NCBI RefSeq assembly: GCF_050920415.1
Contig: NZ_CP169309.1
Length of the DNA: 64,000 nt
DNA from: Escherichia coli
Lineage (GTDB): Bacteria; Pseudomonadota; Gammaproteobacteria; Enterobacterales; Enterobacteriaceae
Reading direction: 5' to 3' (one strand)
Below are positions 42,782-56,099 of the stretch, in pieces. The translations under genes and the position numbers were made by a program. Below the pieces are notes generated by a model. It ran no database searches and had not been told where the DNA came from. It saw nothing but the letters and a program-made list of their open reading frames with translations. The number at the start of each line of letters is the position of its first letter. The first letter of the stretch is position 1.

Positions 42782-45376
42782 ATGCATCACTCTGGTTCTG
42801 TTTCTCTTTGTCGTTCCGCAATATCTGTTCTGGTGGCTACAGCGTTATATTCTCCCATAGCATTGGCATCAACTGTTGAGTATGGAACGACTGTTGATGG
42901 TGTTGTCCTGGAAAAAGATATCCAGCTGGTTTATGGGACCGCAAATAATACGAAAATCACTCCCAGCGGAGAACAGCATATAAAAGAATGTGGTGTAAGT
43001 AATAATGCTGAAATAAACGGAGGGTATCAGTACATTGAAGCATATGGCTCAGCAGAATACTCAGTATTAAATGATGGTTATCAAATTGTTCAATTGGGTG
43101 GTGCAGCAAACCAAACTACCATCAATAATGGTGTGTTACAGGTTTATGGAGCTGCTAATGAAGCCACTATTAAAGGCGGGCGCTTACTCGTTGAAACCGA
43201 AGGCATTGCCATCTTCGCCGTTATCGAAAAGGGAGGACTACTGGAGGTTAAAGATGGCGGATTGGCATTTGCGGTAGATCAAAAAGCAGGCGGTGCAATC
43301 AAAACAACCACGCGGGTTATGGAGGTATTCGGAACAAATCGTCTCGGTCAGTTTGATATCAAAGATGGGGTTGCTAACAATATGCTGTTGGAAAACGGCG
43401 GAAGTTTGCGGGTTGAAGAGAATGACTTCGCTTATAATACCACTGTGGATAGTGGTGGTTTACTGGAGGTTATGGATGGCGGGACTGCAACTGGCGTTGA
43501 CAAAAAAGCAGGCGGAAAATTAATTGTTTCAACGAATGCGCTGGAAGTGAGTGGTACAAACAGTAAAGGCCAATTTAGCATAAAAGATGGCGTGTCTAAA
43601 AATTATGAACTAGATGACGGTTCCGGGCTAATTGTTATGGAGGGCACTCAGGCAATTGACACTATCCTTGATGAGCATGCAACCATGCAATCGTTGGGAA
43701 GAGATACTGGTACGAGAGTGCAGGCACATGCAGTTTATGATCTTGGTCGGTCAGTGCAGAATGGAAGCATAAAATATTCCTCAAATGCTATATCTGAAAA
43801 TATGGTTATCGATAATGGTCGCGCTAATGTCTGGACTGGCACAATGGTTAACGTAACAGTCAGAGGAAATGAGGGCATTATTGATGCAATGGCGCTGGAA
43901 TTAAATTTTTATACACCGGCTACATTATTAGGTGACGTGGTGGTTTCTGATGGTGCATCTTTAAGAACGCATGGCGCAGTGGATACCAGTAAAGCAGATG
44001 TTTCTATCGAAGAGAGTTTTTGGGCTATTATTGCCGATATCAATAATATAAACCAAAACACCCGTCTCAATTTAGCAAACCTGGTGATGTCAGACGGAAC
44101 TGTCGTTATGATGGCTGAGCCAGTGACTCGTTCATCTGTGACGGCAAGTGCGGAAAATTTCACTACATTGACCACTAATACCCTGTCGGGAAACGGCAAT
44201 TTTTATATGCGCACCGATATGGCCAATCACCAGAGCGATCAGCTTAACGTCACCGATCAGGCAACAGGTAATTTCAAAATCTTCGTTACGGACACCGGTG
44301 CCAGCCCGGCAGCAGGAGATAGCCTTACACTGGTAACAACGGGCGGCGGTGATGCTGCATTTACCTTGGGCAATGCCGGAGGCGTTGTTGATATCGGTAC
44401 GTATGAATATATCTTGCAAGATAATGGCAACCATAGCTGGAGTCTGGCAGAGAATCGCACGCAAATAACTCCTTCAACCACTGATGTGTTGAATATGGCG
44501 GCAGCACAACCGCTGGTATTTGATGCAGAACTGGATACCGTACGTGAGCGTCTTGGTAGCGTAAAAGGCGTTAATTACGATACGGCGATGTGGAGTTCGG
44601 CAATTAACACCCGCAACAACGTAACCACTGATGCGGGAGCTGGCTTTGAGCAAACATTGACGGGGCTGACGCTCGGTATCGATAGCCGTTTCTCCCGTGA
44701 AGAAAGCAGCACAATTCGTGGCTTATTCTTTGGTTACTCTCATTCTGATATTGGTTTTGATCGCGGCGGTAAAGGCAATGTCGATAGCTATACCCTGGGG
44801 GCTTATGCCGGTTGGGAGCATCAGAACGGTGCCTATGTTGATGGGGTGGTGAAAGTTGACCGTTTTTCCAACACCATCCATGGCAAGATGAGTAATGGGG
44901 CAACAGCGTTTGGCGATTACAATAGTAACGGCGCGGGTGCTCATGTCGAGAGCGGGTTCCGTTGGGGGGAGGGGTTGTGGAATGTAAGGCCTTATCTGTC
45001 CTTTACCGGCTTTACCACTGATGGTCAGGACTATACGTTATCAAATGGTATGCGAGCGGATGTGGGAAATACCCGCATATTACGCGCTGAAGCGGGAACG
45101 GCGGTAAGCTATCACATGGACCTGCAAAACGGTACGACGCTGGAACCCTGGCTGAAAGCCGCCGTGCGTCAGGAATACGCCGATTCTAACCAGGTGAATG
45201 TTAATGACGACGGCAAATTTAATAATGACGTGGCTGGAACCCGTGGCGTTTATCAGGCTGGGATAAGGTCATCGTTTACCCCGACGTTAAGCGGTCATTT
45301 GTCAGTCAGCTATGGCAATGGCGCGGGGGTAGAATCACCGTGGAATACCCAGGCGGGTGTGGTCTGGACGTTCTGA
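42782..45376 (+). CDS. yejO: Autotransporter YejO, apparently intact (864 aa)
   Basis: 864-aa ORF with signal peptide, repetitive passenger region and C-terminal beta-barrel ending ...VVWTF. Confidence 0.8.
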   Translation: MHHSGSVSLCRSAISVLVATALYSPIALASTVEYGTTVDGVVLEKDIQLVYGTANNTKITPSGEQHIKECGVSNNAEINGGYQYIEAYGSAEYSVLNDGYQIVQLGGAANQTTINNGVLQVYGAANEATIKGGRLLVETEGIAIFAVIEKGGLLEVKDGGLAFAVDQKAGGAIKTTTRVMEVFGTNRLGQFDIKDGVANNMLLENGGSLRVEENDFAYNTTVDSGGLLEVMDGGTATGVDKKAGGKLIVSTNALEVSGTNSKGQFSIKDGVSKNYELDDGSGLIVMEGTQAIDTILDEHATMQSLGRDTGTRVQAHAVYDLGRSVQNGSIKYSSNAISENMVIDNGRANVWTGTMVNVTVRGNEGIIDAMALELNFYTPATLLGDVVVSDGASLRTHGAVDTSKADVSIEESFWAIIADINNINQNTRLNLANLVMSDGTVVMMAEPVTRSSVTASAENFTTLTTNTLSGNGNFYMRTDMANHQSDQLNVTDQATGNFKIFVTDTGASPAAGDSLTLVTTGGGDAAFTLGNAGGVVDIGTYEYILQDNGNHSWSLAENRTQITPSTTDVLNMAAAQPLVFDAELDTVRERLGSVKGVNYDTAMWSSAINTRNNVTTDAGAGFEQTLTGLTLGIDSRFSREESSTIRGLFFGYSHSDIGFDRGGKGNVDSYTLGAYAGWEHQNGAYVDGVVKVDRFSNTIHGKMSNGATAFGDYNSNGAGAHVESGFRWGEGLWNVRPYLSFTGFTTDGQDYTLSNGMRADVGNTRILRAEAGTAVSYHMDLQNGTTLEPWLKAAVRQEYADSNQVNVNDDGKFNNDVAGTRGVYQAGIRSSFTPTLSGHLSVSYGNGAGVESPWNTQAGVVWTF

Positions 45377-45440
45377 TAACAGAAAATAAACAGGCCGTAA
45401 TGTGTCGCGGTCTGTTTATCAAATTAATCGCAGATATAAA

Positions 45441-45470
45441 AAAAACCAACCGCAATAGGTTGGTTTTTCT
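45441..45470. terminator. Bidirectional terminator at the island/yejO junction
   Basis: aaaaaaccaaccgcaataggttggtttttct: hairpin with A/T runs on both sides. Confidence 0.55.
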
Positions 45471-45493
45471 TGGGATTTTTGGTCGCACGAGAG
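45471..45493. repeat. Distal att direct repeat of the proL island
   Basis: tgggatttttggtcgcacgagag resembles tgggcgatttggtcggcacgagag at the tRNA 3' end (56281..56304). Confidence 0.55.
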
Positions 45494-45660
45494 TAGTTTA
45501 ATTGAGTGTATAACTAAATGATTTTAAATAATATTCTTTATTCAACTTTTAAATCGTATAACCAAACGTATAACTAAAATAATTTGCTGAAAAAGTGTAC
45601 AATTTCAGCAATAATTGCCCTAGCGACTATCATCCTGCTCCCCGGATTTTTTCCGGTTAA

Positions 45661-45897
45661 ATGTTAATCAGGCTGCTGGGCTTTGCCTGTTCGGTAGGTG
45701 TAATGATTATCGTAATACTTTTCCCCCAATGGGGTAAAAGCATCAACCGTAACGGAAGTCGTTATGGTTGCCTTGATGATCTGCGTGGTCATTATGACCA
45801 TTCAGCCAATGACCTTAATCAGAGCTTTTCGCTAAAAATGACGTTGGCCACTCGTCCGAAAAGCACAAAATCCCATCGATTTTTAATTAACGGTTAA
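45661..45897 (+). CDS. Hypothetical small membrane protein (78 aa)
   Basis: ORF with hydrophobic N-terminal segment (LLGFACSVGVMIIVILF); no convincing RBS. Confidence 0.25.
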   Translation: MLIRLLGFACSVGVMIIVILFPQWGKSINRNGSRYGCLDDLRGHYDHSANDLNQSFSLKMTLATRPKSTKSHRFLING

Positions 45898-46035
45898 ACC
45901 GTCTTTTTGTCACGTCGTGTCACTGGTTGTCACTCTCCGTCACGATCTCCGATAGCCTGGCTGCAAATTAAACTACGAAAATTTCGTAGTTCTGACTTCT
46001 TTCAGATAGTCGGTTGCCTGGTTACACGAAAAAAA

Positions 46036-46407
46036 TTACTTCCTGCGTTTATCCCGCTTTGTATGTCCGTGCTGAATGCCCCGCAGTGGATCTTCTTTTT
46101 TCAGGTCGATCCCCATGTCCGTTAGTGTTTTTGTGGCGGCGGTTCTTATGGCACAAATCAGGTCTCTTTCCGGTTCCCGGGTTATGGTTGCCTTCCGGAT
46201 ACATGCCGTTCGTCGTTCCGTTACATACTGACGCGCTTCATCACTTGCCGCCTGTTTCAGTAACTCACCCCAGCGATTAGCCGCCCGTCGCCATAAACCT
46301 TTCGCTTCCAGTTCTTCCGCTTTGTCATCATGCACCATAAGCATAATCCCATTGATACCTGTTAAATCTGAATGGTTGGTTTCCGTTCTTTTGATAATTT
46401 CCCTCAT
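46036..46407 (-). CDS. Hypothetical protein, possibly PerC-family transcriptional activator-like
   Basis: 123-aa ORF with LEAKGLWRRAANRWGELL motif reminiscent of PerC-type activators; start may be an internal Met. Confidence 0.4.
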   Translation of the reverse strand: MREIIKRTETNHSDLTGINGIMLMVHDDKAEELEAKGLWRRAANRWGELLKQAASDEARQYVTERRTACIRKATITREPERDLICAIRTAATKTLTDMGIDLKKEDPLRGIQHGHTKRDKRRK

Positions 46408-46450
46408 AGCTTATTGTATGACAGTACTGTCCCACAATAAGGAATCACAC

Positions 46451-46750
46451 ATGAGAATGACCAGGCACAAAAAACAGATTCTTGAACTTTACAAACCTGA
46501 GTATCGCGATTGGGTGCGGGTGGAGGCCGGAGATCCGCCTTTTGATGTTCGTGGTGTGACAGTGCTGCTCTATGGTTCCGAATATCAGCGATATCACATA
46601 GAGGCAACCCGACGAACGTTAAACGCTATGGTAAATGATGGGATCCTGTACCGCGTGAAAGTGCGCGAACCCCGCTTTGATGTGCGTATCGGTAGCGATG
46701 GCGCTCACTGTACGGTAATCCGGTACGGGCTGGGTAAATCAGATGATTAA
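46451..46750 (+). CDS. Hypothetical protein (99 aa)
   Basis: Start chosen at ATG 46451 preceded by AAGGA RBS (ORF track extends upstream to 46322); no recognisable domain. Confidence 0.45.
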   Translation: MRMTRHKKQILELYKPEYRDWVRVEAGDPPFDVRGVTVLLYGSEYQRYHIEATRRTLNAMVNDGILYRVKVREPRFDVRIGSDGAHCTVIRYGLGKSDD

Positions 46751-46873
46751 ATCACCAGAATGTAAATTTACATTCTGCCAGCCACCAGCTACAGAACGCA
46801 AATTTGCACTTTGCTGAAATATTAACGGGTTAGGCCAGAGTGCAAATTTGCATTATGCTTTAACTTCAGCAAG

Positions 46874-47155
46874 TTACCGCCGTAACCGCTCCGGCTTCTT
46901 CCACTGGTACGTTATTTTGGCTTTTTCCCTGTACGTCTGTATCCGGCGACGGTAGGCCAGCATTTCAAGAACGCGGATCCGTATGTCGCGCATATCCGCA
47001 TCATTAAGCTGGATACCATCACGGTGCATCACCTCAGCAACCACACGAACATAATTTTCTGCGGTCACGCTGTCCGGCTGCGTGGCCTGTTCGTCAGCCT
47101 GCTGGTTGATTCCGGCGACGCGGCGGATTAATCGCAGTAGTTCGGTTTCTGTCAT
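46874..47155 (-). CDS. Hypothetical protein (93 aa)
   Basis: ORF just downstream of the capsid-gene terminator; no recognisable domain. Confidence 0.4.
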   Translation of the reverse strand: MTETELLRLIRRVAGINQQADEQATQPDSVTAENYVRVVAEVMHRDGIQLNDADMRDIRIRVLEMLAYRRRIQTYREKAKITYQWKKPERLRR

Positions 47156-47315
47156 TGTGCCCCCATCGCGCTGGTTAAGAAAACAAGCTCAGATTTTTTG
47201 TAAAGAATCTGTCACGCTAAAAGATGTCGAACAAAAAACAACCTTCTCCATCATCTTTTTTGCATCGATTACATTAAAAACAACAGGTTACATACATGAT
47301 GATGATGACGATAAA

Positions 47316-47412
47316 ATCACAAAAATGCGCTTTTTTCCGCGCCCGCCCGCCCCGTGTTCATACCCACCCCACCAGGAGGACCCGCAAAAAAGGCGGCTGG
47401 TGCCGCCTTGTT
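47316..47412 (-). repeat. Repeated non-coding element, copy A: terminator hairpin plus GC box
   Basis: Shares a ~38-bp near-identical core (aaaaatgcgc(t/c)tttttccgcgcccgcccgccccgtg) and similar downstream architecture with copy B. Confidence 0.6.
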
Positions 47413-47413
47413 G

Positions 47414-49303
47414 TCATAGTGAATCGGTACCGCCTGATTTGACCATACCGCGATAATCCAGAGCGGCCACACCAGCATCAATACGGACTTTCCAGGCCAC
47501 ACCGTCAACGATGAAACCTTCCTGCTGTTCAAGGTAAGGCTCGTCATTGCCATCAAGATAAGCCACCTCGATTGTGTCCGTTCCCTGTGCGGAAAGCATG
47601 TACCATTGTTTTTCGCTGATATCATCAAGGCGGGGATCGACGATAATATCCAGTAGTTTGTGATACGGGTTAAAGATCCCGCTGTTTTTATCTGCCCCGA
47701 AAGGTGCGGTTGAGTTAATCATCTGCAACGCGCGATCTTCCAGTGCTGCCGGAACTAAAAGGAATTTAGGCGCAATATTCAGCACTTCGCCATTTTTGTC
47801 CTTCTGTGTGCGCATCAGGTGACGTGCTGCACTAAGTCCCGGTGTTGTCAGTCCTGCTTCAATCAGGTTGCTGTGTTTTTTGTCAAACAGCGCTATTCCA
47901 TCAGAAAGTTTTACGTTGCCTGTAAGCACCAGATTAACCAGATTTCCCACCGTTCTTGATGCTGCACGGCCCATAGCCATTGGCACCGTTGATAACTGAT
48001 CAAGGTCATCATTGATTATCGCCTGGCGGGTAATGCTGAAAATATTCCCGTAAGTAGCCAGCGCGATGGGTTCACCGCGATCGCTGGTGGTGATGTATTT
48101 ATATTCTGCCCCTTCCGGCACTTTGTTTAACGTAGAGAAACCATTCAGACCAACGCGGCGGGCTTCACGAAAGTTTGAAAGGGAACCTTTTTTCGTCCAC
48201 TGGCGGAATGTTTCGCCGCTGTGCTCCCAGCCTGCAAGCACTGATTTTTCAGCACCACCAGCAAGGATATCGGTAAAATCGCTGCTGCTGTGGTTGAATG
48301 CCGCGTTTACTATCTGCGAGCGTGTTCCGTAGCTGCCCGTGCTTATACCACGATGGGTTAATGATGCCTGTGCCATATCGAAAAGGCTCATCATGGCGTA
48401 AGGATTACCGCGTTCGGCCCGTTCGTGACCAAGACGCGCATTAAGCCCCTGGCGCATTGCATCGCCGGTTATGTTGCCGTTATCCGTGTACGCGTAGTAA
48501 AGATTTGCGGGGGTGGTTTTATTTGTTGGCGTTGATTCTTTACCCATAGCGAGTAAAAGGCGTTCGCGTGCATTCTCAACGCTACATTCTGAATCAGCAA
48601 GACAACTTATAGCCAGGTCGTTATATCTTCCGTTGAACGTGCCAAACAATTCACGGATGCCGTTAAGTCGTTCCTGTTCGCCACTGCCAGTTTTCTGGCT
48701 GATCATGCTTTTAATTTTTTCCGGCATATTTGAAAAATCTCCGATTCGTTTTGATTCAATTCGGGCCATTGCTGTAATCGCGGGTATAACCTCATCTGCG
48801 AAGCCGTTAGCCTTACACTCATTGCCATCCATCCAGGTTTCCGCCTCCATCATGGCGGTGATTTCCTGTTTGCTCCTGCCCGTTCTTCCGGCGTAGGTTT
48901 CAGCCATCGTGTCGCCCAGCTTGTCCATCAGGTCAGCAAAGCGGCGAACGTCGCCCGACACTCCGGCAGTAACACCACGGGGGGCATGTATCATCATCAT
49001 TGCGTTTTCAGGCATAACGATGTGATCGCCACACATGGCAATAAACGAGGCCATAGAAGCCGCCATGCCTTCAATGTGTACAATTTTCTTTGCCGGATGA
49101 TTTTTCAGGGCGTTATAGATAGCCAGCCCTTCAAAGATGTCGCCACCAGGTGAATGGATGCGAAGATGGATTTCAGACGCATTACCACACGCGTTGATCT
49201 CGTCAGTAAGTGCCGATGCTTTTACACCGTACCCGCCGATCTCGTCATAAATGCGCACATAGACAACATCTGCCATAGCCTTAATGGAAAACCATGTTTT
49301 CAT
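47414..49303 (-). CDS. Prohead protease (ClpP/S14-like) fused to a capsid-like C-terminal domain
   Basis: 629-aa ORF: N-terminal ~180 aa has ClpP-like motifs (GMAASMAS, MMIHAP); C-terminal ~350 aa reads as an HK97-fold major capsid protein, assigned by impression only. Confidence 0.75.
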   Translation of the reverse strand: MKTWFSIKAMADVVYVRIYDEIGGYGVKASALTDEINACGNASEIHLRIHSPGGDIFEGLAIYNALKNHPAKKIVHIEGMAASMASFIAMCGDHIVMPENAMMMIHAPRGVTAGVSGDVRRFADLMDKLGDTMAETYAGRTGRSKQEITAMMEAETWMDGNECKANGFADEVIPAITAMARIESKRIGDFSNMPEKIKSMISQKTGSGEQERLNGIRELFGTFNGRYNDLAISCLADSECSVENARERLLLAMGKESTPTNKTTPANLYYAYTDNGNITGDAMRQGLNARLGHERAERGNPYAMMSLFDMAQASLTHRGISTGSYGTRSQIVNAAFNHSSSDFTDILAGGAEKSVLAGWEHSGETFRQWTKKGSLSNFREARRVGLNGFSTLNKVPEGAEYKYITTSDRGEPIALATYGNIFSITRQAIINDDLDQLSTVPMAMGRAASRTVGNLVNLVLTGNVKLSDGIALFDKKHSNLIEAGLTTPGLSAARHLMRTQKDKNGEVLNIAPKFLLVPAALEDRALQMINSTAPFGADKNSGIFNPYHKLLDIIVDPRLDDISEKQWYMLSAQGTDTIEVAYLDGNDEPYLEQQEGFIVDGVAWKVRIDAGVAALDYRGMVKSGGTDSL

Positions 49304-49494
49304 AGCCAGGCTCCTAACGTTGCCCTGTACCAGTATTCAACCGCGCTGCGTGTGATTTGTCCTTTCGTGGGTACCGGCATACCCGGGTGATTGTCTTTGA
49401 TGAACTGCTGATAGCGTTCGATCTTCTCCATAGTTCCGGCGTCTATGTGTACCGTGGCACTTTTATCCGGCTTTCTGGTGTTGTTCTCTGGCAT
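49300..49494 (-). CDS. Hypothetical small protein coupled to the protease-capsid gene
   Basis: ORF 49300..49527; internal ATG at 49494 has a strong GGAGG RBS; stop overlaps capsid ATG (ATGA). Confidence 0.45.
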   Translation of the reverse strand: MPENNTRKPDKSATVHIDAGTMEKIERYQQFIKDNHPGMPVPTKGQITRSAVEYWYRATLGAWL

Positions 49495-49854
49495 AAATCC
49501 GCCTCCGTTTTGATTAACGGGCATCATTATTGATCGATAAAAGTAATAGATAAATCATTTTCTACCTGAAAATTAGATTATATTTTTTCTGATTATTCTC
49601 AGAGAGGCAAAGCCATTGACGCATTTTTGCTATTGAAGCAATATTAAGACTCGTCATCCTGGCGATAAAAACTCCTTTGTCGTGTAAAAGCGCCTCCGGT
49701 AACAGCAATCGAGGGCGCTTTTTTTTGCGCCTGTTTTTTTGTAAATGTTTTCGGGAACGCTCCAGTGATGAACAAAAAACAACCTGATTCGACACTAAAA
49801 ATTTTTATTCCTCAATATATCAATAACTTATAGTGGTGGTGATGGTGCCATAAA

Positions 49855-49952
49855 AATCAAAAAATGCGCCTTTTTCCGCGCCCGCCCGCCCCGTGGACAG
49901 GCCCACCAAGCCAGGAGTACCTACAAAAAAGCCGGATTGCTCCGGCTGTGTG
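49855..49952 (-). repeat. Repeated non-coding element, copy B
   Basis: See copy A; hairpin gccggattgctccggc plus GC box. Confidence 0.6.
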
Positions 49953-49965
49953 CTCACTTCTTCGG

Positions 49966-50217
49966 TTATTCTCCAGCGCTTTTAACGTTGATGGTTGTAA
50001 CCTGTTCCGCTTCGGCAATCTCCCATTCTGTCAGCGTGGCAAAGTTTGCCGCCGCTGTGGTCATGAATGCGCTTATCAGGTCGGGATGTGCTTTCGCGTA
50101 TCCTTCCCCCGTGTTGCGGTCGATGATTTTTATCGCCACTCTCAGCCAGTGCTCTGTAAGGTCAATGGCGCGGTTATGCTGCTTCTTCTGATTATTAAGT
50201 TTTCCTGATGTGCGCAT
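49966..50217 (-). CDS. Hypothetical protein (83 aa)
   Basis: ORF between the iteron array and repeat copy B; G-rich RBS-like sequence upstream. Confidence 0.4.
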   Translation of the reverse strand: MRTSGKLNNQKKQHNRAIDLTEHWLRVAIKIIDRNTGEGYAKAHPDLISAFMTTAAANFATLTEWEIAEAEQVTTINVKSAGE

Positions 50218-50249
50218 TTTTATTTTTACCCCCTCGTTTAAAAAGTTTT

Positions 50250-50500
50250 GAGTTGTGCCTCCCCTTGTCTACCTTATCTACCTTACTGGCCACCATGCCA
50301 GTAATGGCGCGGCTTTCAGTGGGGTAGAGTGCTTTTATCCACTATCTACCCCGTATCTACCTCCCTGTCTGATTCAGGTAAAATCAGGTAGAGAGGGTAG
50401 ATAGTAGGTAGACAGTAAAAAAAGGCTGTCTACCCAAGTTAATGTACTGAATTAAATGTATTTTTCTTTACTCAGGTAGACAGGGTAGACAGCCATTGCA
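50250..50500. repeat. Iteron array, putative replication origin
   Basis: At least 11 copies of GGTAGA/TCTACC in both orientations within ~250 bp, just 3' of the replication gene. Confidence 0.55.
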
Positions 50501-50505
50501 ACAAA

Positions 50506-52254
50506 TTATAAAAACGCGTCGCAATCGTCTGTTGTTATTGCGTTAGTCTGCGTTACTCCTTTAACTTTCCGCGTAATATATTCATGTCCGTAAACTTTCG
50601 CGGCTGGCTTCATAGCCTTGCCAAAGTCATTTACGTTTAGCGGTTTGCTCCTGCCTGCGTACGCCATAAACGCCAGATAGACGCGGTAAAGGCTGTTTCT
50701 GGTCGTGTACTTCACTGAATCGCCACCGCCGCCCATCATCAGGCCGCGTGCTTCCTCCAGAAAATTCAGGAACTGGCAAAACTCAATAACCGGATCCGTC
50801 TGTTGCTTTATTGCCAGTGCTTCATCACCGTCACGCTGTTCAATGAGTAAAGCCCGTGCCTTTTCAGGGTCGGCAAAGTTCGCCAGCAAGCGGCGGATAA
50901 TGACAGGGATTTCAGCCGCGATCTTTTCCGGTAGCTCCCTGTCTTTTTCTGCCTCGCTTACGATGTTATCGAACCGGAATATCACCCGACGACGTGCCAC
51001 ACCTCCGGCCCGTTCGGTGAATATCATCGGATTGTTATTGGTTGCCAGCACCACCGCCCTGATTACCGCCGTAAAACGCTTTTCATATTTCGGGTTAATT
51101 TCCACGGGGTCGCCGCCCGTGATTTTCTTGATGCCCGTTCCTTCGCCTGTATATTTCTGCTGGTCTGCCAGGACGATAAGACGACTCCCGACAACCTGCG
51201 CACGCCCACCAGCATCATCAAGCGATGTCATTTCAGCGCTTACCGTGTTTTGTTTCCCTGCCAGAAGGCTGGCTATGTGTGTGAATGTACTTTTACCGCT
51301 CCCGCCGTCTCCGGTGGCCTCAATAAACATCTGCCAGTCGTACCGGTTCGCCATAATCATGTACAGCGCGGCACATATACGCATCATCTTGCTCGGGTCT
51401 TTTCCGGCTGCGTGCTCAAGCCATTTATGAAAGTTTGGCGCGTTATCGCGGATGTTCTCCCCGGGTGCTGGTGGCGTGTACTCAATGCCGTTGTGCGTGG
51501 TGATCCAGTTCTCCGGCGTGTGCGGGGAAAATTCCCCCGTTTTCAGGTCAAGCGCACCATTGGCGAACGGCAGCAAATCGCCGGACGGCTCGCCCATTGG
51601 TTCGGCAATAACTTTTAACGCTTCCACGGCGTTATTGATTACGCGCTTGCTGAAAGTGGCCCTGTGCTCTGAATAGATAGCCACCATTTCGCGGCTCAGC
51701 TCCATTGTGCTGACCGGACACCATACCCCGCCGCGCCATACGTGAACGATTTCACTTTCAGGATGCACACAAACGCCATCAAAGCGCTCGGCAAGCAGCT
51801 GCGCGCGCTCACTGTCTGCCATTTGTGCCAGTTGCGTATTTTTCTGCTCCGGCATGGTAAGCCCTGCGGCAATATTTTCACGCTCAGCATTCAGATAGCG
51901 CCGCCAGTTTTCACACTTCTGGACGTGCATTCCTTCGGGGTAAAAATTTGCGTCCTGAATATCTGCCGCCGCCAGCTTCTGACCAATCTTTTTGGTCTCC
52001 ACCAAATCCAGTTCTCCGGCCTGGTACAGCCTTACGCGCTTTTTCCCATCCGGAACAATTTTCAGTGCATCAAGTTCGGCAAGCTGATTTGGCCCAAGCC
52101 ACACAGGCGGCACATTATCGCCGGATGCGGGGCCATCCTGCTCCTGCCATTGTTTCGCGTGCGACCAGGCATCACTACCCGCGAAAATAATTACCTCTGT
52201 GTCTTTGTGTTTTATTCCGCGTGGCTGTTTTTTTACGTTCGGTGCCAGTTTCAT
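50506..52254 (-). CDS. Replication protein: NTPase/helicase-like with Walker A motif (primase-helicase-like)
   Basis: 582-aa ORF with Walker A GDGGSGKST and a putative Walker B (LIVLAD); SF3/D5/P4-alpha-type assignment is by impression. Confidence 0.75.
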   Translation of the reverse strand: MKLAPNVKKQPRGIKHKDTEVIIFAGSDAWSHAKQWQEQDGPASGDNVPPVWLGPNQLAELDALKIVPDGKKRVRLYQAGELDLVETKKIGQKLAAADIQDANFYPEGMHVQKCENWRRYLNAERENIAAGLTMPEQKNTQLAQMADSERAQLLAERFDGVCVHPESEIVHVWRGGVWCPVSTMELSREMVAIYSEHRATFSKRVINNAVEALKVIAEPMGEPSGDLLPFANGALDLKTGEFSPHTPENWITTHNGIEYTPPAPGENIRDNAPNFHKWLEHAAGKDPSKMMRICAALYMIMANRYDWQMFIEATGDGGSGKSTFTHIASLLAGKQNTVSAEMTSLDDAGGRAQVVGSRLIVLADQQKYTGEGTGIKKITGGDPVEINPKYEKRFTAVIRAVVLATNNNPMIFTERAGGVARRRVIFRFDNIVSEAEKDRELPEKIAAEIPVIIRRLLANFADPEKARALLIEQRDGDEALAIKQQTDPVIEFCQFLNFLEEARGLMMGGGGDSVKYTTRNSLYRVYLAFMAYAGRSKPLNVNDFGKAMKPAAKVYGHEYITRKVKGVTQTNAITTDDCDAFL

Positions 52255-52550
52255 TTTTTACCCCTGAATACGTTAAGCATCTTTTTTATTTCCTGAATAT
52301 TGGCGCGTGCTTTCTCCCTGCTGGTTGGTTTACTGCGGGGCGCTGCCTGTACCAGAGAAAAATCACGCCGAAACTGATAAACAGGCATCACGCAATCATA
52401 TTCGTAGCCTTCACGACGGTAGGTGATGCGCCGTTCTGCCACGCCTTTAATCGTTACCATGCCGCCATATTTATCGCGGTAAATATCGCCGCGCGTAAAT
52501 TTAGGGTGAGTGTTGCCACTAGCAGTTAAGCCAGAAATTTTCTTTTTCAT
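52251..52550 (-). CDS. Hypothetical protein (99 aa), coupled to the replication gene
   Basis: Stop overlaps replication-gene start; basic protein. Confidence 0.45.
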   Translation of the reverse strand: MKKKISGLTASGNTHPKFTRGDIYRDKYGGMVTIKGVAERRITYRREGYEYDCVMPVYQFRRDFSLVQAAPRSKPTSREKARANIQEIKKMLNVFRGKK

Positions 52551-52566
52551 GGTTTTTATTCCGCGT

Positions 52567-52782
52567 TTATTTTTTATCGTGAATTTCGATCGCTTTATTT
52601 AATTCGGTGATTACCGTATCGAGTAATGAAATAAACGCACCAGCAAGATTAGATTCACGTTCACCTTCCGGCGCATCACTTAAACCATCAAGCCAGATAA
52701 GCAATATTTGCCGCAAGCATTCACTGTTAGTCAGTGCGTTTTCTGCATGGCTCATTAATTTAAAATAACGGTCATCATGCAT
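52567..52782 (-). CDS. Hypothetical protein (~71 aa)
   Basis: ORF 52567..52827; internal ATG at 52782 has AAGGGG RBS and sits 2 nt after the upstream gene's stop. Confidence 0.4.
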   Translation of the reverse strand: MHDDRYFKLMSHAENALTNSECLRQILLIWLDGLSDAPEGERESNLAGAFISLLDTVITELNKAIEIHDKK

Positions 52783-53011
52783 GGTGCGCCCCTTGAATAT
52801 CTGCGGTAAGAATTTTGCCTGCCTCATTCAGCGCCATATCAGCACTAAGTTGCATAACCGCCAGCGAATGAGGAACGAAAGCCCCTGCATATTCTGTTTC
52901 ACTGGTGGCGTGCTTATGCGCCATGTCAGCAATAACAGAAATATCAATAAGCGCATCCATCAGCGTTTTGATGGCTTCGGCGGCTGCGTCCGGACGGGGG
53001 TTATTGCACAT
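52775..53011 (-). CDS. Hypothetical protein (78 aa), first gene of the replication operon
   Basis: Strong GGAGG RBS 6-7 nt upstream of ATG; faces the divergent operator region. Confidence 0.45.
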   Translation of the reverse strand: MCNNPRPDAAAEAIKTLMDALIDISVIADMAHKHATSETEYAGAFVPHSLAVMQLSADMALNEAGKILTADIQGAHHA

Positions 53012-53289
53012 GGCGCACCTCCTGACGAATACGGGCGGCGAATACCATCACGCAGCCAGCCGGGGATTGCTGGCGGGCTTCCTGTTCGCTGGTGGCCTCG
53101 ATGGTAATCACGCGCGGTTGTGCCGTGCTCAGGGCGATAAAACGCCAGATGTATTTATTCAGGTTGTGCGAATCCCGCCCTTGCGGGTGTGTGGTATGAT
53201 TTCTCATAGCTGCCTCGATACTCTTTCTATCGTTGGTGGTTAGACGCCCTGCATGTGTGCCACCACTGCGGGGCGTTGCGTTTTTTGAT

Positions 53290-53347
53290 GCACACGTGTT
53301 AAGGTGTACACCTACAAAGCAAAAACATAACGCCATAGGTGTACACA
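53290..53347. promoter_or_regulatory. Operator cluster in the divergent control region
   Basis: Palindromes ACACGTGT (53293), GGTGTACACC (53303..53312) and AGGTGTACAC (53338..53346, overlapping the RBS of the plus-strand gene). Confidence 0.5.
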
Positions 53348-53541
53348 TGTCAACAGTTATTAAGCGCGATAAAAAACAAAAAGGCACAGGAAAGACCCCA
53401 CCGTTCCATATGCGTATAGTTCCTGAATTGAAGGAGCAGTTTGATAACGAAGCCAGTAACGATGGAGTAAGTCTTGCCAACTGGCTTAAAGAGTTGGGGC
53501 GCGCCGAACTAAAGCGACGCGGCATTGAACCTAAAGGCTGA
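53347..53541 (+). CDS. Small DNA-binding regulator, putative ribbon-helix-helix (64 aa)
   Basis: ATG with AGGTG RBS; HMRIVPELKEQF strand-like then helical DGVSLANWLKELGRAEL suggests RHH (assigned by impression); divergent from the replication operon. Confidence 0.45.
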   Translation: MSTVIKRDKKQKGTGKTPPFHMRIVPELKEQFDNEASNDGVSLANWLKELGRAELKRRGIEPKG

Positions 53542-53544
53542 TGT

Positions 53545-53664
53545 ATGACCGATAACAAACTTTCTCTAACAGAGAATAAACCATCAGGCTTCTTACCAAG
53601 AAAAATCCTTGATGAGATCAAACGCCGCCAGCGTAAAAAATCCAAAGGAGCAGACACGGAATAG
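53545..53664 (+). CDS. Hypothetical basic peptide (39 aa)
   Basis: Short ORF 3 nt after the upstream stop; below the ORF-track length cutoff. Confidence 0.2.
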   Translation: MTDNKLSLTENKPSGFLPRKILDEIKRRQRKKSKGADTE

Positions 53665-53667
53665 CTT

Positions 53668-53832
53668 ATGCAACAAATACCATACTGGCTTGGCTCTCTG
53701 TTTGTATTTGCATTTCTCATGAAATATTGCATTAGCAATGAACTTGTCGGTAATGAAAGTGCATGCGCGAGCGCTGAAAAAAATATTCCACTTCTCGTAT
53801 ATGAAAACGAAAGCCCTGTGAACCGCAATTGA
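53668..53832 (+). CDS. Hypothetical small membrane peptide (54 aa)
   Basis: ATG 3 nt after the upstream stop; hydrophobic N-terminus (YWLGSLFVFAFLM) then polar tail. Confidence 0.25.
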   Translation: MQQIPYWLGSLFVFAFLMKYCISNELVGNESACASAEKNIPLLVYENESPVNRN

Positions 53833-54108
53833 GCGAAATTTAATGAATTCACTCTTTGCCCACCAGCCGCAAATGTGGCATTGTTGGCGATGCTCATGCG
53901 TTGGGGATAACGTGTAGCTTGTGTCGAAGGGCCATCGTGACAGGTGGCCTTTTCTTTACCTGTTATCTGGCAATTGTGGCGCTTCGTCACACGGTTGATA
54001 TAATTCCCCTGCACTGATCCATTTTTTTCGCAGCAGGTTAATTGTTCGCAAGGGCGCTCCGGCAACGGGGCGCTTTTTGTTATGTTCATCACGTTACGCC
54101 TCACACCA

Positions 54109-54315
54109 TTACGCAGCCGTTCCGCGCGCTTCTTCCTCGCGCTCTTTCAGCCAGGCCAGCACTTCATCTTCATACCAGCCAACACGACGCAGACCGATTT
54201 TGAAGCCTTTCGGAAATTTTCCGGCGTTGATCATGTCCTGTAGCGAACTGTCTGCCTTGATGCGCAGAATATTTTTTACTTCCTGACGGGTAAGAATTTT
54301 TCTGATTGTTTCCAC
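54109..54315 (-). CDS. alpA: AlpA-family transcriptional regulator/excisionase-like protein (GTG start)
   Basis: 68-aa ORF with MerR-like HTH (LTRQEVKNILRIKADSSLQDMINAGKFPKGFKIG...); typical neighbour of P4-type integrases. Confidence 0.8.
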   Translation of the reverse strand: METIRKILTRQEVKNILRIKADSSLQDMINAGKFPKGFKIGLRRVGWYEDEVLAWLKEREEEARGTAA

Positions 54316-54384
54316 TATGTTTTACCTCGTTAATCCGGCGTATTCCGGTGATAAATACGGTAAAACAGGGCAGGGCGGGAAAAA

Positions 54385-54420
54385 CAGTACCCACCGTTTT
54401 AAAACGGTACCCACTGTTTT
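54385..54420. promoter_or_regulatory. Putative operator upstream of alpA
   Basis: acaGTACCCACcgtttt aaaacgGTACCCACtgtttt: motif repeated 20 bp apart around a central palindrome. Confidence 0.4.
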
Positions 54421-54485
54421 TTATCTTATTGATTACGCTTTTCTTTCTGCAAAAAAATAGCGACCGCAAGGGGCCGCTATTGTGA

Positions 54486-54728
54486 TTACCGTTTCCACTT
54501 CTTAGGTCGCCCACCGCATTTAAGGCTGGTGGGCCTCAGCACCTTGTCGATGCTTTCAGCCAGATTTTTCGATGCGCCACGCGAGCGCAAAAAACTGACT
54601 ACCTCGTGTTTTGTGGGGGCAGTTGATTTGTCTTCCGGATCGTACGTTGACCAGAATTCACGATTTGCCATTAAGGCCAACTGAAGGCCTTCACCATAGG
54701 CAGGGGATACCTTTTCATTGAAAAACAC
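54486..54728 (-). CDS. Hypothetical protein (80 aa) between integrase and alpA
   Basis: ORF followed by a hairpin/T-run near 54455..54480. Confidence 0.3.
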   Translation of the reverse strand: MFFNEKVSPAYGEGLQLALMANREFWSTYDPEDKSTAPTKHEVVSFLRSRGASKNLAESIDKVLRPTSLKCGGRPKKWKR

Positions 54729-54829
54729 TCGGATAACTCCTTGAATTTCAAGAGTCGGGTCTCTCTGTATATGGTGATTATACGATGGTTTAGCATGGTT
54801 TGCATCGCTTTTACTGGTTTTTTGTACAG

Positions 54830-56071
54830 TTATACGGCACGGATACCCCTTTTACCACTGGCTATGGTCACTCCGGTTGCTGCGGCCTCTACAAATTCCC
54901 CCCACCAGCGCATAAGCACCACGCGCTTTTCCAGGTAGTTACTTCGGTTATATGCTCGCCTTACCTCGTTCGTGTCCACGTGTGCGAGTGCGGCCTCGAT
55001 TACGTCCGGCTCGAATCCTTCCTCGTTCGCTGCTGTGCTGAATATGGCGCGTAATCCATGAGACACCAGCACGCCAGCGAATCCCATTCGCCGCAATGCT
55101 GCGTTGGCGGTCTGGCTGTTCATAGGCTGCCGTGGGTCTTTCAGGCTAGGGAAAACGTGCTCGCGGTGGTGGCTGATTGGCTTCATGGCCTCCAGTACCG
55201 CCATAGCCTGACTACAAAGCGGGATAACGTGATCACGCCGCATCTTCATGCGTCCGGCGGGGATCGTCCATTGTTGCGCGTCCATGTCGATTTCTTCCCA
55301 GCGTGCTGACGATGCTTCAACCGGACGGGTTACAGTCAGTAGCTGCCATTCAATCAGTAATCTGGTCTGCCGTTCTGTTGCTGATACGGATAAAGCCTGC
55401 ATAAGCTCCGGCAACTGTTCGGGGCGGATTGTTGGCATATGTTTTTTTACAGGGGAGGGGAACGCCTTACGCACATTCATAGCCGGATTGGCATCAATCA
55501 GCCCACTGTTGGCGGCGTAATCCATTACCTCATTAACGCGCTGTAAAACCCGCTTGAGTGTTTCCAGGTTGCCGCGCTCCTTGATGGGTGTAAGCACCTC
55601 AACGAACCTTCGGGCAGTGAGGGTATCTATTGGCGTGTTGCCGATGAACGGGAATACATATTTATCCAGCGAACGCCAGATGTCTTTAATCGTGTTGGGG
55701 GCCAGATTCTGGCTGATTTTCACCTGGTACCATGCCGCCGCCACATTTTCGAACGTGTTCCCTTGTCTTCGGGCCTCTGCCTCTCGTTTTTTCTTCTCAT
55801 GGTCCTGCGGGTCAGTTCCGGCACTGATTAACGTCCTGTACTCGCTACGGCGTTTTCTGGCATCAGCCAGGGAAACATCTTCAAGAGATCCAAAACTCAG
55901 CAATATTCTTTTTTTGTCCGATGGTCGGTAGTAGGAAAATCGCCAGAGTTTTGATCCGGACGGTTTTACCAGGAGAAAAAGCCCACCGCCGTCCTGTAGG
56001 GTGTACTCCTTTTGCGCTGGTCTGGCTGCTTTGATCTGCACTGTGGTTAATGGGGGTGTTTTTCTCGCCAT
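54830..56071 (-). CDS. int: Tyrosine site-specific integrase (P4-type)
   Basis: ORF 54830..56089; start placed at MARKTPPLTT; N-terminal arm-binding-like domain and catalytic HGLR...LAH...Y. Confidence 0.9.
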   Translation of the reverse strand: MARKTPPLTTVQIKAARPAQKEYTLQDGGGLFLLVKPSGSKLWRFSYYRPSDKKRILLSFGSLEDVSLADARKRRSEYRTLISAGTDPQDHEKKKREAEARRQGNTFENVAAAWYQVKISQNLAPNTIKDIWRSLDKYVFPFIGNTPIDTLTARRFVEVLTPIKERGNLETLKRVLQRVNEVMDYAANSGLIDANPAMNVRKAFPSPVKKHMPTIRPEQLPELMQALSVSATERQTRLLIEWQLLTVTRPVEASSARWEEIDMDAQQWTIPAGRMKMRRDHVIPLCSQAMAVLEAMKPISHHREHVFPSLKDPRQPMNSQTANAALRRMGFAGVLVSHGLRAIFSTAANEEGFEPDVIEAALAHVDTNEVRRAYNRSNYLEKRVVLMRWWGEFVEAAATGVTIASGKRGIRAV

Positions 56072-56099
56072 ATGTCTATGATTCCACACGAAAAAACAG

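Follow-up and report, generated by a model that had tools for sequence, protein, structure and literature searches.

Palindromic units at the right-hand end of an EcCICFT073-type phage satellite resemble a dyad within phage rha and roi genes and may bind helper-phage regulators

The closest described relatives of the locus analysed here are the phage-inducible chromosomal islands (PICIs) of the EcCICFT073 type (Fillol-Salom 2018, PMC6092414; Fillol-Salom 2019, PMC6739421), with which it shares an integrase, an AlpA-like regulator, a primase, capsid-related genes and PerC, as well as, probably, two cos sites resembling those of lambdoid helpers. Those papers describe cos1 and cos2, Rpp and ori (PMC6092414, PMC6739421), and two cos sites are described for EcCICFT073 (PMC6092414). 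As for helper recognition by Gram-negative PICIs, the activator had still to be identified according to the 2018 paper (PMC6092414). In the PICI literature that we searched, there was no mention of Rha, no link between Rha and PICIs and no description of arrays of the kind reported below.

On the phage side, the nearest relatives are the genes of the Rha and Roi regulators. A passage in PMC4936722, citing Henthorn and Friedman 1995, describes Rha-family proteins as phage regulators that are detrimental without IHF, and has IHF regulating rha. Phage rha, which is IHF-regulated in phi80 and P22, resembles the present locus in carrying a 22-nt dyad whose geometry is that of the window sites, and HK022 roi resembles it in that a perfect IHF consensus comes after a dyad (CTGCATTGCAG) where its codons are homologous to the island units. 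The HK022 Roi protein reportedly binds a site within its own gene beside an IHF site, and IHF is said to stabilise that binding, as Clerget and Boccard are said to have found in 1996. In the phage genes there is one copy per gene and it lies in coding sequence. In contrast, the island copies are non-coding and reiterated, combine several gene lineages, are more symmetric, and belong to a satellite that has no rha or roi gene.

Two other arrangements bear comparison. In the RIP (BIME-1) elements of E. coli, REP palindromes flank an IHF site, and the elements are extragenic, tandem and often found between convergent genes. The likeness lies in extragenic palindromes with an IHF consensus, in tandem and between convergent genes; the island sequences, however, are unrelated to REP, their dyads vary, they appear to be restricted to these islands, with no other match to the consensus in the 64 kb, and they have a traceable origin in phage genes. 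Operator or decoy titration arrays likewise present several clustered dyad-symmetric sites away from any promoter. Most island arrays differ from these in that their dyads are unlike one another, which suggests a panel rather than many copies, and titration would be one conceivable role among others here.

In the window, the 64-kb stretch of E. coli DNA analysed here, the palindromes sit in an island of ~10.8 kb inserted at tRNA-Pro(ggg), with the following landmarks:

45480-45493, attR-like copy of the tRNA end, TGGTCGCACGAGAG, beside yejO, found by eye
46036-46338, minus strand, PerC-family regulator gene
46451-46750, plus strand, ORF99 (99 aa), hypothetical, found in E. coli only, ending 5 nt before the first palindrome
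46874-47155, minus strand, ORF93 (93 aa), phrog_1561, no assigned function
47414-49303, ClpP-protease/major-capsid fusion gene
50506-52254, P4-family primase gene
within the island, a small helix-turn-helix gene
within the island, an Icd-like gene
54830-56089, integrase gene
56290-56366, tRNA-Pro

The integrase at tRNA-Pro, the P4-family primase, the ClpP-protease/capsid fusion and PerC match the published gene set of Gram-negative PICIs (PMC6092414, PMC6739421, PMC11773190), which shows the island to be a PICI of the EcCICFT073 type; PerC genes occur in other Gram-negative PICIs (PMC6092414, PMC11773190). The attR-like TGGTCGCACGAGAG resembles the tRNA-Pro 3' end (TGGTCGGCACGAGAG at ~56290) and marks attR, and no exact direct repeat of the tRNA end of at least 12 nt was found. 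Just to the right of attR is an A/T-rich stretch with repeated TATAAC(T/C)AAA, which may hold integrase arm sites. A 1-kb query from the window (46300-47300) is 100% identical to E. coli strains 08-00022 and OkiPb01679. From about the primase to the integrase (50500-56100), the island does not match the annotated coordinates of the 08-00022 island (L001, NZ_CP013662.1), which suggests modular exchange within the island family. A 75-aa ORF on the minus strand at 49300-49527, overlapping the start of the capsid fusion, matches phrog_4934 over its full length (E = 1.8e-51) and is absent from the RefSeq annotation examined. We set aside a 367-aa 'ORF' at 53001-54104 as mostly spurious.

The sequence-only reading had described three AAATTT-centred palindromes where two ORFs converge. 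All three are present, on evidence somewhat stronger than it gave, and the junction is indeed convergent, with the 99-aa ORF on the plus strand ending at 46750 and the 93-aa ORF on the minus strand at 46874. A fourth dyad of the same class had been overlooked. The elements are:

45971-45991, plus strand, fourth dyad, AACTACGAAAATTTCGTAGTT
46756-46777, no strand, unit 1 dyad CAGAATGTAAATTTACATTCTG, a perfect 22-nt palindrome (11/11 arm pairs, 10+2+10 geometry)
46782-46789, minus strand, Chi octamer GCTGGTGG, in the linker of units 1 and 2
46792-46834, plus strand, unit 2: dyad CAGAACGCAAATTTGCACTTTG at 46792-46813 (8/11 arm pairs) with tail CTGAAATATTAACGGGTTAGG
46798-46807, core GCAAATTTGC within the unit 2 dyad
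46836-46876, plus strand, unit 3: dyad CAGAGTGCAAATTTGCATTATG at 46836-46857 (9/11 arm pairs) with tail CTTTAACTTCAGCAAGTTA
46841-46852, core TGCAAATTTGCA within the unit 3 dyad

The second and third sites had been placed correctly at 46798-46807 and 46841-46852 but too narrowly, since both are imperfect dyads of 22 nt; the first is the perfect 22-bp palindrome described, but it had been put 1 nt off, at 46757-46778. A repeat finder sets units 1-3 in register as copies of one 22-24-nt element, with start-to-start spacings of 36 and 44 nt. The motif GYAAATTTRC occurs three times in the 64 kb against 0.59 expected, all within one 96-nt stretch, and a 22-nt consensus, itself built from these same sites, had no further match with up to 3 mismatches in the whole 64 kb. 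Unit 3 overlaps the neighbouring gene, the last TTA of its tail being the complement of the ORF93 stop codon. The PerC-like/ORF99 gene pair lies between the fourth dyad and units 1-3, with the PerC-family gene as accessory cargo. Four strains have identical sequence (100%) over the 201 nt around the sites, against 97.3% over the surrounding 1 kb, and unit 1 is identical in three divergent islands (L002, L003 and L004) whose flanks are only 75% identical. The whole island is Chi-rich, and Chi octamers within arrays are confined to a subset of the related islands, so Chi may not belong to the element. The array of L004 holds several copies of CCACCAGC; further left, a Chi in the opposite orientation that is conserved in most related islands is mutated in the window (GCTGCTGG).

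Related islands were gathered by means of ORF93 (80 IMG/VR loci and four E. coli loci), and a family of such units was found just 3' of this gene in more than 50 of them. Counted with a loose pattern, the tandem units directly 3' of ORF93 number from 0 to 7. In the related right-end regions 58 strings match the tail pattern, most of them recognisable as units, and 52 distinct right ends yielded 48 full-length distinct units. The unit is a dyad with varying but still complementary arms, usually followed by an IHF-consensus-like tail. Island dyads include CCTCAAATTGAGG, TCCCCCAATGGGGGA, TTCGCCGCTGGCGAA, GCGCAATTTTGCGC, AGCTCAATTTTGAGCT and CTCCTCAAAATTGAGGAG, and the conserved tails have forms such as TTTCCGAAAATATCAACGGGTTAGGC or TTTGCTTTAATCTCAGTGAGTTACCGC. 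The stems show compensatory changes (CCCCC/GGGGG versus CCACC/GGTGG; GCGC versus GCTC/GAGC). In every array with at least two units (29/29), only different dyads are present. Units 1-3 have the position and orientation of the family, directly 3' of ORF93 and all one way, and its geometry, 10-nt arms around a 2-nt centre (arms CAGAG-YGC-AA / TT-GCR-CTTTG); their dyads are similar to one another, a likeness not seen in other arrays. Units 2 and 3 are family members with partly decayed tails, and unit 1 is the dyad only. For this island family, the unit arrays are a marker of the right-hand end.

The gene that adjoins the arrays offers few clues. In every related island, too, the 3' end of ORF93 abuts the array, and the head module beside it has been swapped between islands. 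The protein has no relative in Pfam, NCBIfam or the PDB, its sole match being an unnamed PHROG; its model is a helical bundle for which a fold search gave no match, and tblastn against phage genomes gave none. In one IMG/VR island (L057), and likewise in some others, one frame in the unit orientation stays open across the entire array (for example ...GDCGRINGLGLNGLRGNYQHPEYDGLCFRPLQFEVPENINGLGWFPRCSPLANFENINQLPP...). Unit 2 of the window has an in-frame stop, so a translated array product is unlikely to be general.

The sequence-only reading had proposed a search of phage genomes for the palindrome family, and this search exposed the relationship on which our interpretation turns. In blast against phage genomes, a typical array matches inside the roi and anti-repressor genes of Stx and lambdoid phages. 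In roi of phage JLK-2012 the match falls at codons ~43-58, ATCCGACATCCTCAAATTGAGGATTGTGGAAGAATCAATGGGTTAGGC, encoding IRHPQIEDCGRINGLG. Two other Roi-like genes have different dyads at these codons, CCCCAATGGGG (encoding PPMG) and CGCCAATGGCG (encoding APMA), and the same IHF-like motif comes after both. Units of the Rha type, which include window units 2 and 3, match the Rha genes (PF09669) of CUS-3, Sf101, POCJ13, P13374 and phi191, the last with GCAGAGCGCAATTTTGCGCTTTGCTATGAAAACAATGAGTTACAG, encoding AERNFALCYENNELQ. We call the shared segment, a 22-nt dyad (10-nt arms, 2-nt centre) with an IHF-consensus-like motif about 10 nt later, the 'rha box'; it is carried in the 5' part of Rha/Roi/antirepressor-type regulator genes of lambdoid, P22-like and Stx phages. 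The fourth dyad of the window is identical at 26/26 positions to the KilAC antirepressor gene of Hafnia phage Pocitis76, at codons ~50-58 (LNYENFVV), and the same unit is also found inside the arrays of other islands.

Units 1-3 are the most diverged members of the family. No match was found by blastn between the window intergenic region and phages, or between rha/roi genes and units 1-3 at E<=0.05, and IMG/VR holds no coding rha allele with the GCAAATTTGC core. Their link to phage comes through an alignment of 12 sequences and through their positional homologues in L002 and L004, which match phage genes directly. In it, units 1-3, five other island units and four rha genes (phi191, Sf101, P0094 and Salmonella) line up with no internal gap, giving the consensus CAGAGCGCAATTTTGCGCTTTGCTTTAA..TCAATGAGTTAC. 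In a blast of full rha and roi genes against the right ends of the islands, matches were essentially confined to the box (nt 170-196 of rha, nt 122-169 of roi), always in one orientation, antisense to ORF93; no other substantial part of either gene was found there. Such comparisons give good support to a homology between the units and this segment inside the phage genes, and no other part of them.

A coding origin invites the view that the units have no binding function, being either scars of repeated exchange between the island and the rha/roi genes of helper phages or patches of homology for the swapping of cassettes such as PerC/ORF99. Translated in frame, the window units read ECKFALCF, ERKFALC* and ECKFTFC where Rha has ERNFALCY. 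Moreover, the PerC/ORF99 pair is bracketed by the fourth dyad (45971-45991) on one side and units 1-3 on the other, the head module beside ORF93 has been exchanged, and some linkers hold Chi octamers. However, a crossover should have brought adjoining rha or roi sequence with it, and only the ~45-nt box is ever present. While the rest drifts, the symmetry of the dyads and the positions of the IHF consensus hold or improve; unit 1 is perfect, and identical in islands that are 75% identical around it; and the arrays hold only different dyads, which also speaks against such relics. We consider this account unlikely.

The IHF consensus is WATCAANNNNTTR. The tail of unit 2 contains TATTAACGGGTTA (46820-46832), one mismatch from it; the motif in the unit 3 tail is degenerate, with 3 mismatches, and unit 1 has no IHF-like tail. 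The absence in unit 1 and the degeneration in unit 3 count against reading the window units as sites for helper regulators. Across the family the motif shows strong enrichment: in 33.8 kb of distinct island right ends, strict WATCAANNNNTTR was counted 62 times on the strand of the units (+) and 19 times on the opposite one (-), a total of 81 against 1.7 in shuffles, although the related sequences are not independent and these figures overstate the significance. The perfect consensus in HK022 roi stands right after the dyad and is the sole one in the 6.7 kb examined.

Within the phage genes themselves, the dyad appears to be a feature of the DNA and not only of the protein. Among nine rha genes from Escherichia, Shigella, Salmonella, Vibrio and Acinetobacter, the box is the top-scoring dyad of the gene in six (8-10 of 10 arm pairs) and tied for best in a seventh. 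The codons for the residues before and after N-F are exact reverse complements in five of the nine (CGC/GCG, CGT/ACG, CTC/GAG), and most of the others are one base short. In 120 Rha proteins these two residues, three apart, co-vary with 0 exceptions, R going with A or T and L with E, K, Q or D. This pairing of residues and codons is supportive, not decisive, and could partly reflect two clades. The arms vary between alleles yet stay symmetric; the Roi-type alleles, for instance, have four different dyads at the same codons (CCTCAAATTGAGG, CCCCAATGGGG, CGCCAATGGCG and CTGCATTGCAG). It makes a clear case of coding sequence that seems to be under constraint, in several genera, at the level of a DNA dyad. 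The roi-type genes L086, L089 and L090 have a second strong dyad, GCGACAGCATCATTGTTGTCGC (encoding KRDSIIVVAQ), at nt ~217-240; it is the top-scoring dyad in two of these three (L089 and L090) and has not been copied into islands.

We put at roughly one half the probability that the palindromes are non-coding, reiterated copies of the rha box and that the island copies bind helper proteins of the Rha/Roi family, with or without IHF. In the phage, the dyad and the IHF motif would together form the site at which the winged-helix Rha or Roi protein binds its own gene, the box being the autoregulatory operator of proteins of this type. The dyad and IHF consensus of HK022 roi fit the binding reported for Roi, and from this we infer that the box is an operator and that the island copies bind helper proteins. 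In the island, helper-encoded proteins of the Rha/Roi family would bind the copies, joined by IHF at units with an intact tail, and the satellite would in this way detect lytic development of the helper, titrate its regulator or build an IHF-bent complex. Function would then probably lie in sensing or soaking up a helper regulator and not in stopping transcription or in packaging; of the roles that the sequence-only reading had listed, binding sites for a helper-phage protein is the one we favour, as a prediction from the homology of the dyads to the dyad inside helper-phage rha, roi and antirepressor genes.

Freedom from coding constraint would account for the island copies having grown more symmetric. 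The centre has gone from the AATTTT of rha to the AAATTT of the window, a change that in the gene would turn an invariant N into K, and unit 1 is perfect; elsewhere, too, island dyads are often longer or more perfect than phage dyads, with arms of up to 12 nt. One feature sits awkwardly with helper-regulator binding, namely the location of the arrays, since the 3' end of an operon is not where one would look for a regulatory site.

The all-different dyads of the 29 arrays, together with their derivation from at least three gene lineages (rha, roi and KilAC antirepressor), suggest a panel for helper alleles. As a tentative extension, and one that we think has the odds somewhat against it, the PICI may hold a panel of operator copies, each dyad matched to a different Rha/Roi/Ant allele, that senses or sponges the regulator of any lambdoid helper. 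If true, the panel would be a counterpart, in cis-acting DNA, of the multi-target Stl repressors of staphylococcal islands, and Rha-family genes would be autoregulated through an intragenic dyad that co-evolves with the encoded protein. A conserved array borrowed from helper regulator genes is, in any case, a testable candidate for the link between PICI and helper, and it points to the widespread and poorly understood Rha/Roi family as the partner on the phage side. What is new here is a cluster of operator-like sites in a phage satellite with an unusual and traceable origin and a putative function read from sequence. For annotation, the arrays explain an otherwise puzzling block of palindromes.

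The window departs from the pattern of different dyads. Its three dyads are alike, so one protein may bind them cooperatively, and that protein might be encoded by the island. The candidate at hand is ORF99, possibly a winged-helix protein to judge from its model, which would bind the three similar AAATTT-centred dyads cooperatively. The best PDB matches of the model are all winged-helix DNA binders (Fur/Nur, RTP, linker histone), unit 1 follows ORF99 in the window, in L002 and in L003, and the three dyads are similar to one another, which sets them apart from other arrays. However, none of those matches is significant and the model is of low confidence (pLDDT 61). ORF99 has 17 homologues and no family in PHROGs, NCBIfam, Pfam or PDB sequences, and neither it nor ORF93 shows any relation to a Rha/Roi profile. 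Moreover, L004 has an intact unit 1 but no annotation of ORF99, and the unit family is present in many islands without the gene, which most unit-bearing islands lack. The place where an operator of ORF99 and PerC would be expected is occupied by a separate 32-nt palindrome at 46410-46441 (CTTATTGTATGACAGT / ACTGTCCCACAATAAG, 88% complementary), between the divergent PerC-like and ORF99 genes; this is likely the operator of the pair, and its sequence is unrelated to the AAATTT dyads. Binding of the dyads by ORF99 is, on this evidence, improbable.

The sequence-only reading had allowed that the palindromes might simply act as terminators, and alternatively that they mark an unannotated promoter or sRNA. 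A scan of 46750-46880 found no terminator-like site. The stems are A/T-rich, the sequences 3' of them are CCAGCC, CTGAAA and CTTTAA, and no T-run follows any of the three on either strand; the terminator explanation accordingly fails at these sites. The promoter or sRNA proposal fares no better, with no promoter-like site, no Rfam family (tRNA-Pro was the only match in 45300-57000 at E<=1) and no strand-specific G.U bias in the stems. Across the stems, G.T and A.C mismatches are about equally common (11 versus 8, no strand bias), so nothing favours single-stranded RNA over duplex DNA. RNA folding gives about -10 kcal/mol for unit 1 and -3 to -7.6 kcal/mol for units 2 and 3.

An RNA element could still take other forms, with hairpins that stabilise or end the convergent transcripts, or with read-through of the late operon yielding RNA antisense to helper rha/roi mRNA. 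The units do stand where convergent genes have their 3' ends, shuffled sequences fold less stably than the region itself (z = -4.65 for each strand), the box matches all run one way, antisense to ORF93, and some other islands have terminator-like units, such as CTCCTCAAAATTGAGGAGCCTTTTTAT. However, low folding energy follows trivially from repeated palindromes, and an antisense role requires no symmetry of the island dyads beyond that of the phage target. Weighing these points together with the A/U-rich stems, the missing U-tract, the weak folds of units 2 and 3, the negative terminator scan at the three window sites, the even mismatch counts and the empty Rfam search, we think an RNA role quite unlikely, and helper-regulator binding at the DNA level remains the preferred reading.

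Packaging was another role suggested for the palindromes, and it is better assigned to other DNA nearby. Two G-rich repeats of ~95 nt, at ~47297-47391 and ~49835-49930, flank the ClpP-protease/major-capsid fusion gene and share a cosN-like core, ACGGGGCGGGCGGGCGCGG (also given as ACGGGGCGGGCGGGCGCGGAAAAA). Intergenic DNA of Stx1/Stx2 lambdoid phages matches them at 95-98% identity, and the linear mEp213 and mEp043 genomes match them at 74% at their extreme right end; the repeats are probably the two cos sites of the island. Three repeated sites near the head and packaging module might nonetheless be cosB-like sites for a helper small terminase or an Rpp-type protein, and islands of the EcCICFT073 type are described as having an unusual cosB (PMC6739421). 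Against this, the cos-like repeats lie elsewhere, ~0.5 and ~3 kb from the palindromes, the nearer one on the far side of ORF93; the intergenic region has no match to lambda or P2 cosN patterns; and neither flanking protein matches solved Rpp or TerS structures. We regard a packaging signal at the palindromes as very improbable. Type III toxin-antitoxin repeats, CRISPR, integron attC sites and P4 ori iterons were likewise dropped, since the units are non-identical, have no partner gene and trace to phage coding sequence.

The DNA to the left of the fourth dyad holds further phage-derived traces. At 45700-45870, in the right end of the island, lie decayed remnants of roi-like coding sequence, among them CCCCCAATGGGG with ATCAAC after it, and CTTAATCAGAGCTTTTCG (LNQSF), and a 78-aa ORF at 45661-45897 is probably a roi-like relic and not a gene. 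We had considered 45640-45860 as lambda cosN-proximal sequence and rejected this on reading the sequence, which contains these roi-like remnants (LNQSF). Between the remnants and the fourth dyad, at 45909-45943, four GTCAC motifs recur with an exact 10-bp spacing (GTCACGTCGTGTCACTGGTTGTCACTCTCCGTCAC) in an iteron-like arrangement that is conserved beside the arrays in many related islands.
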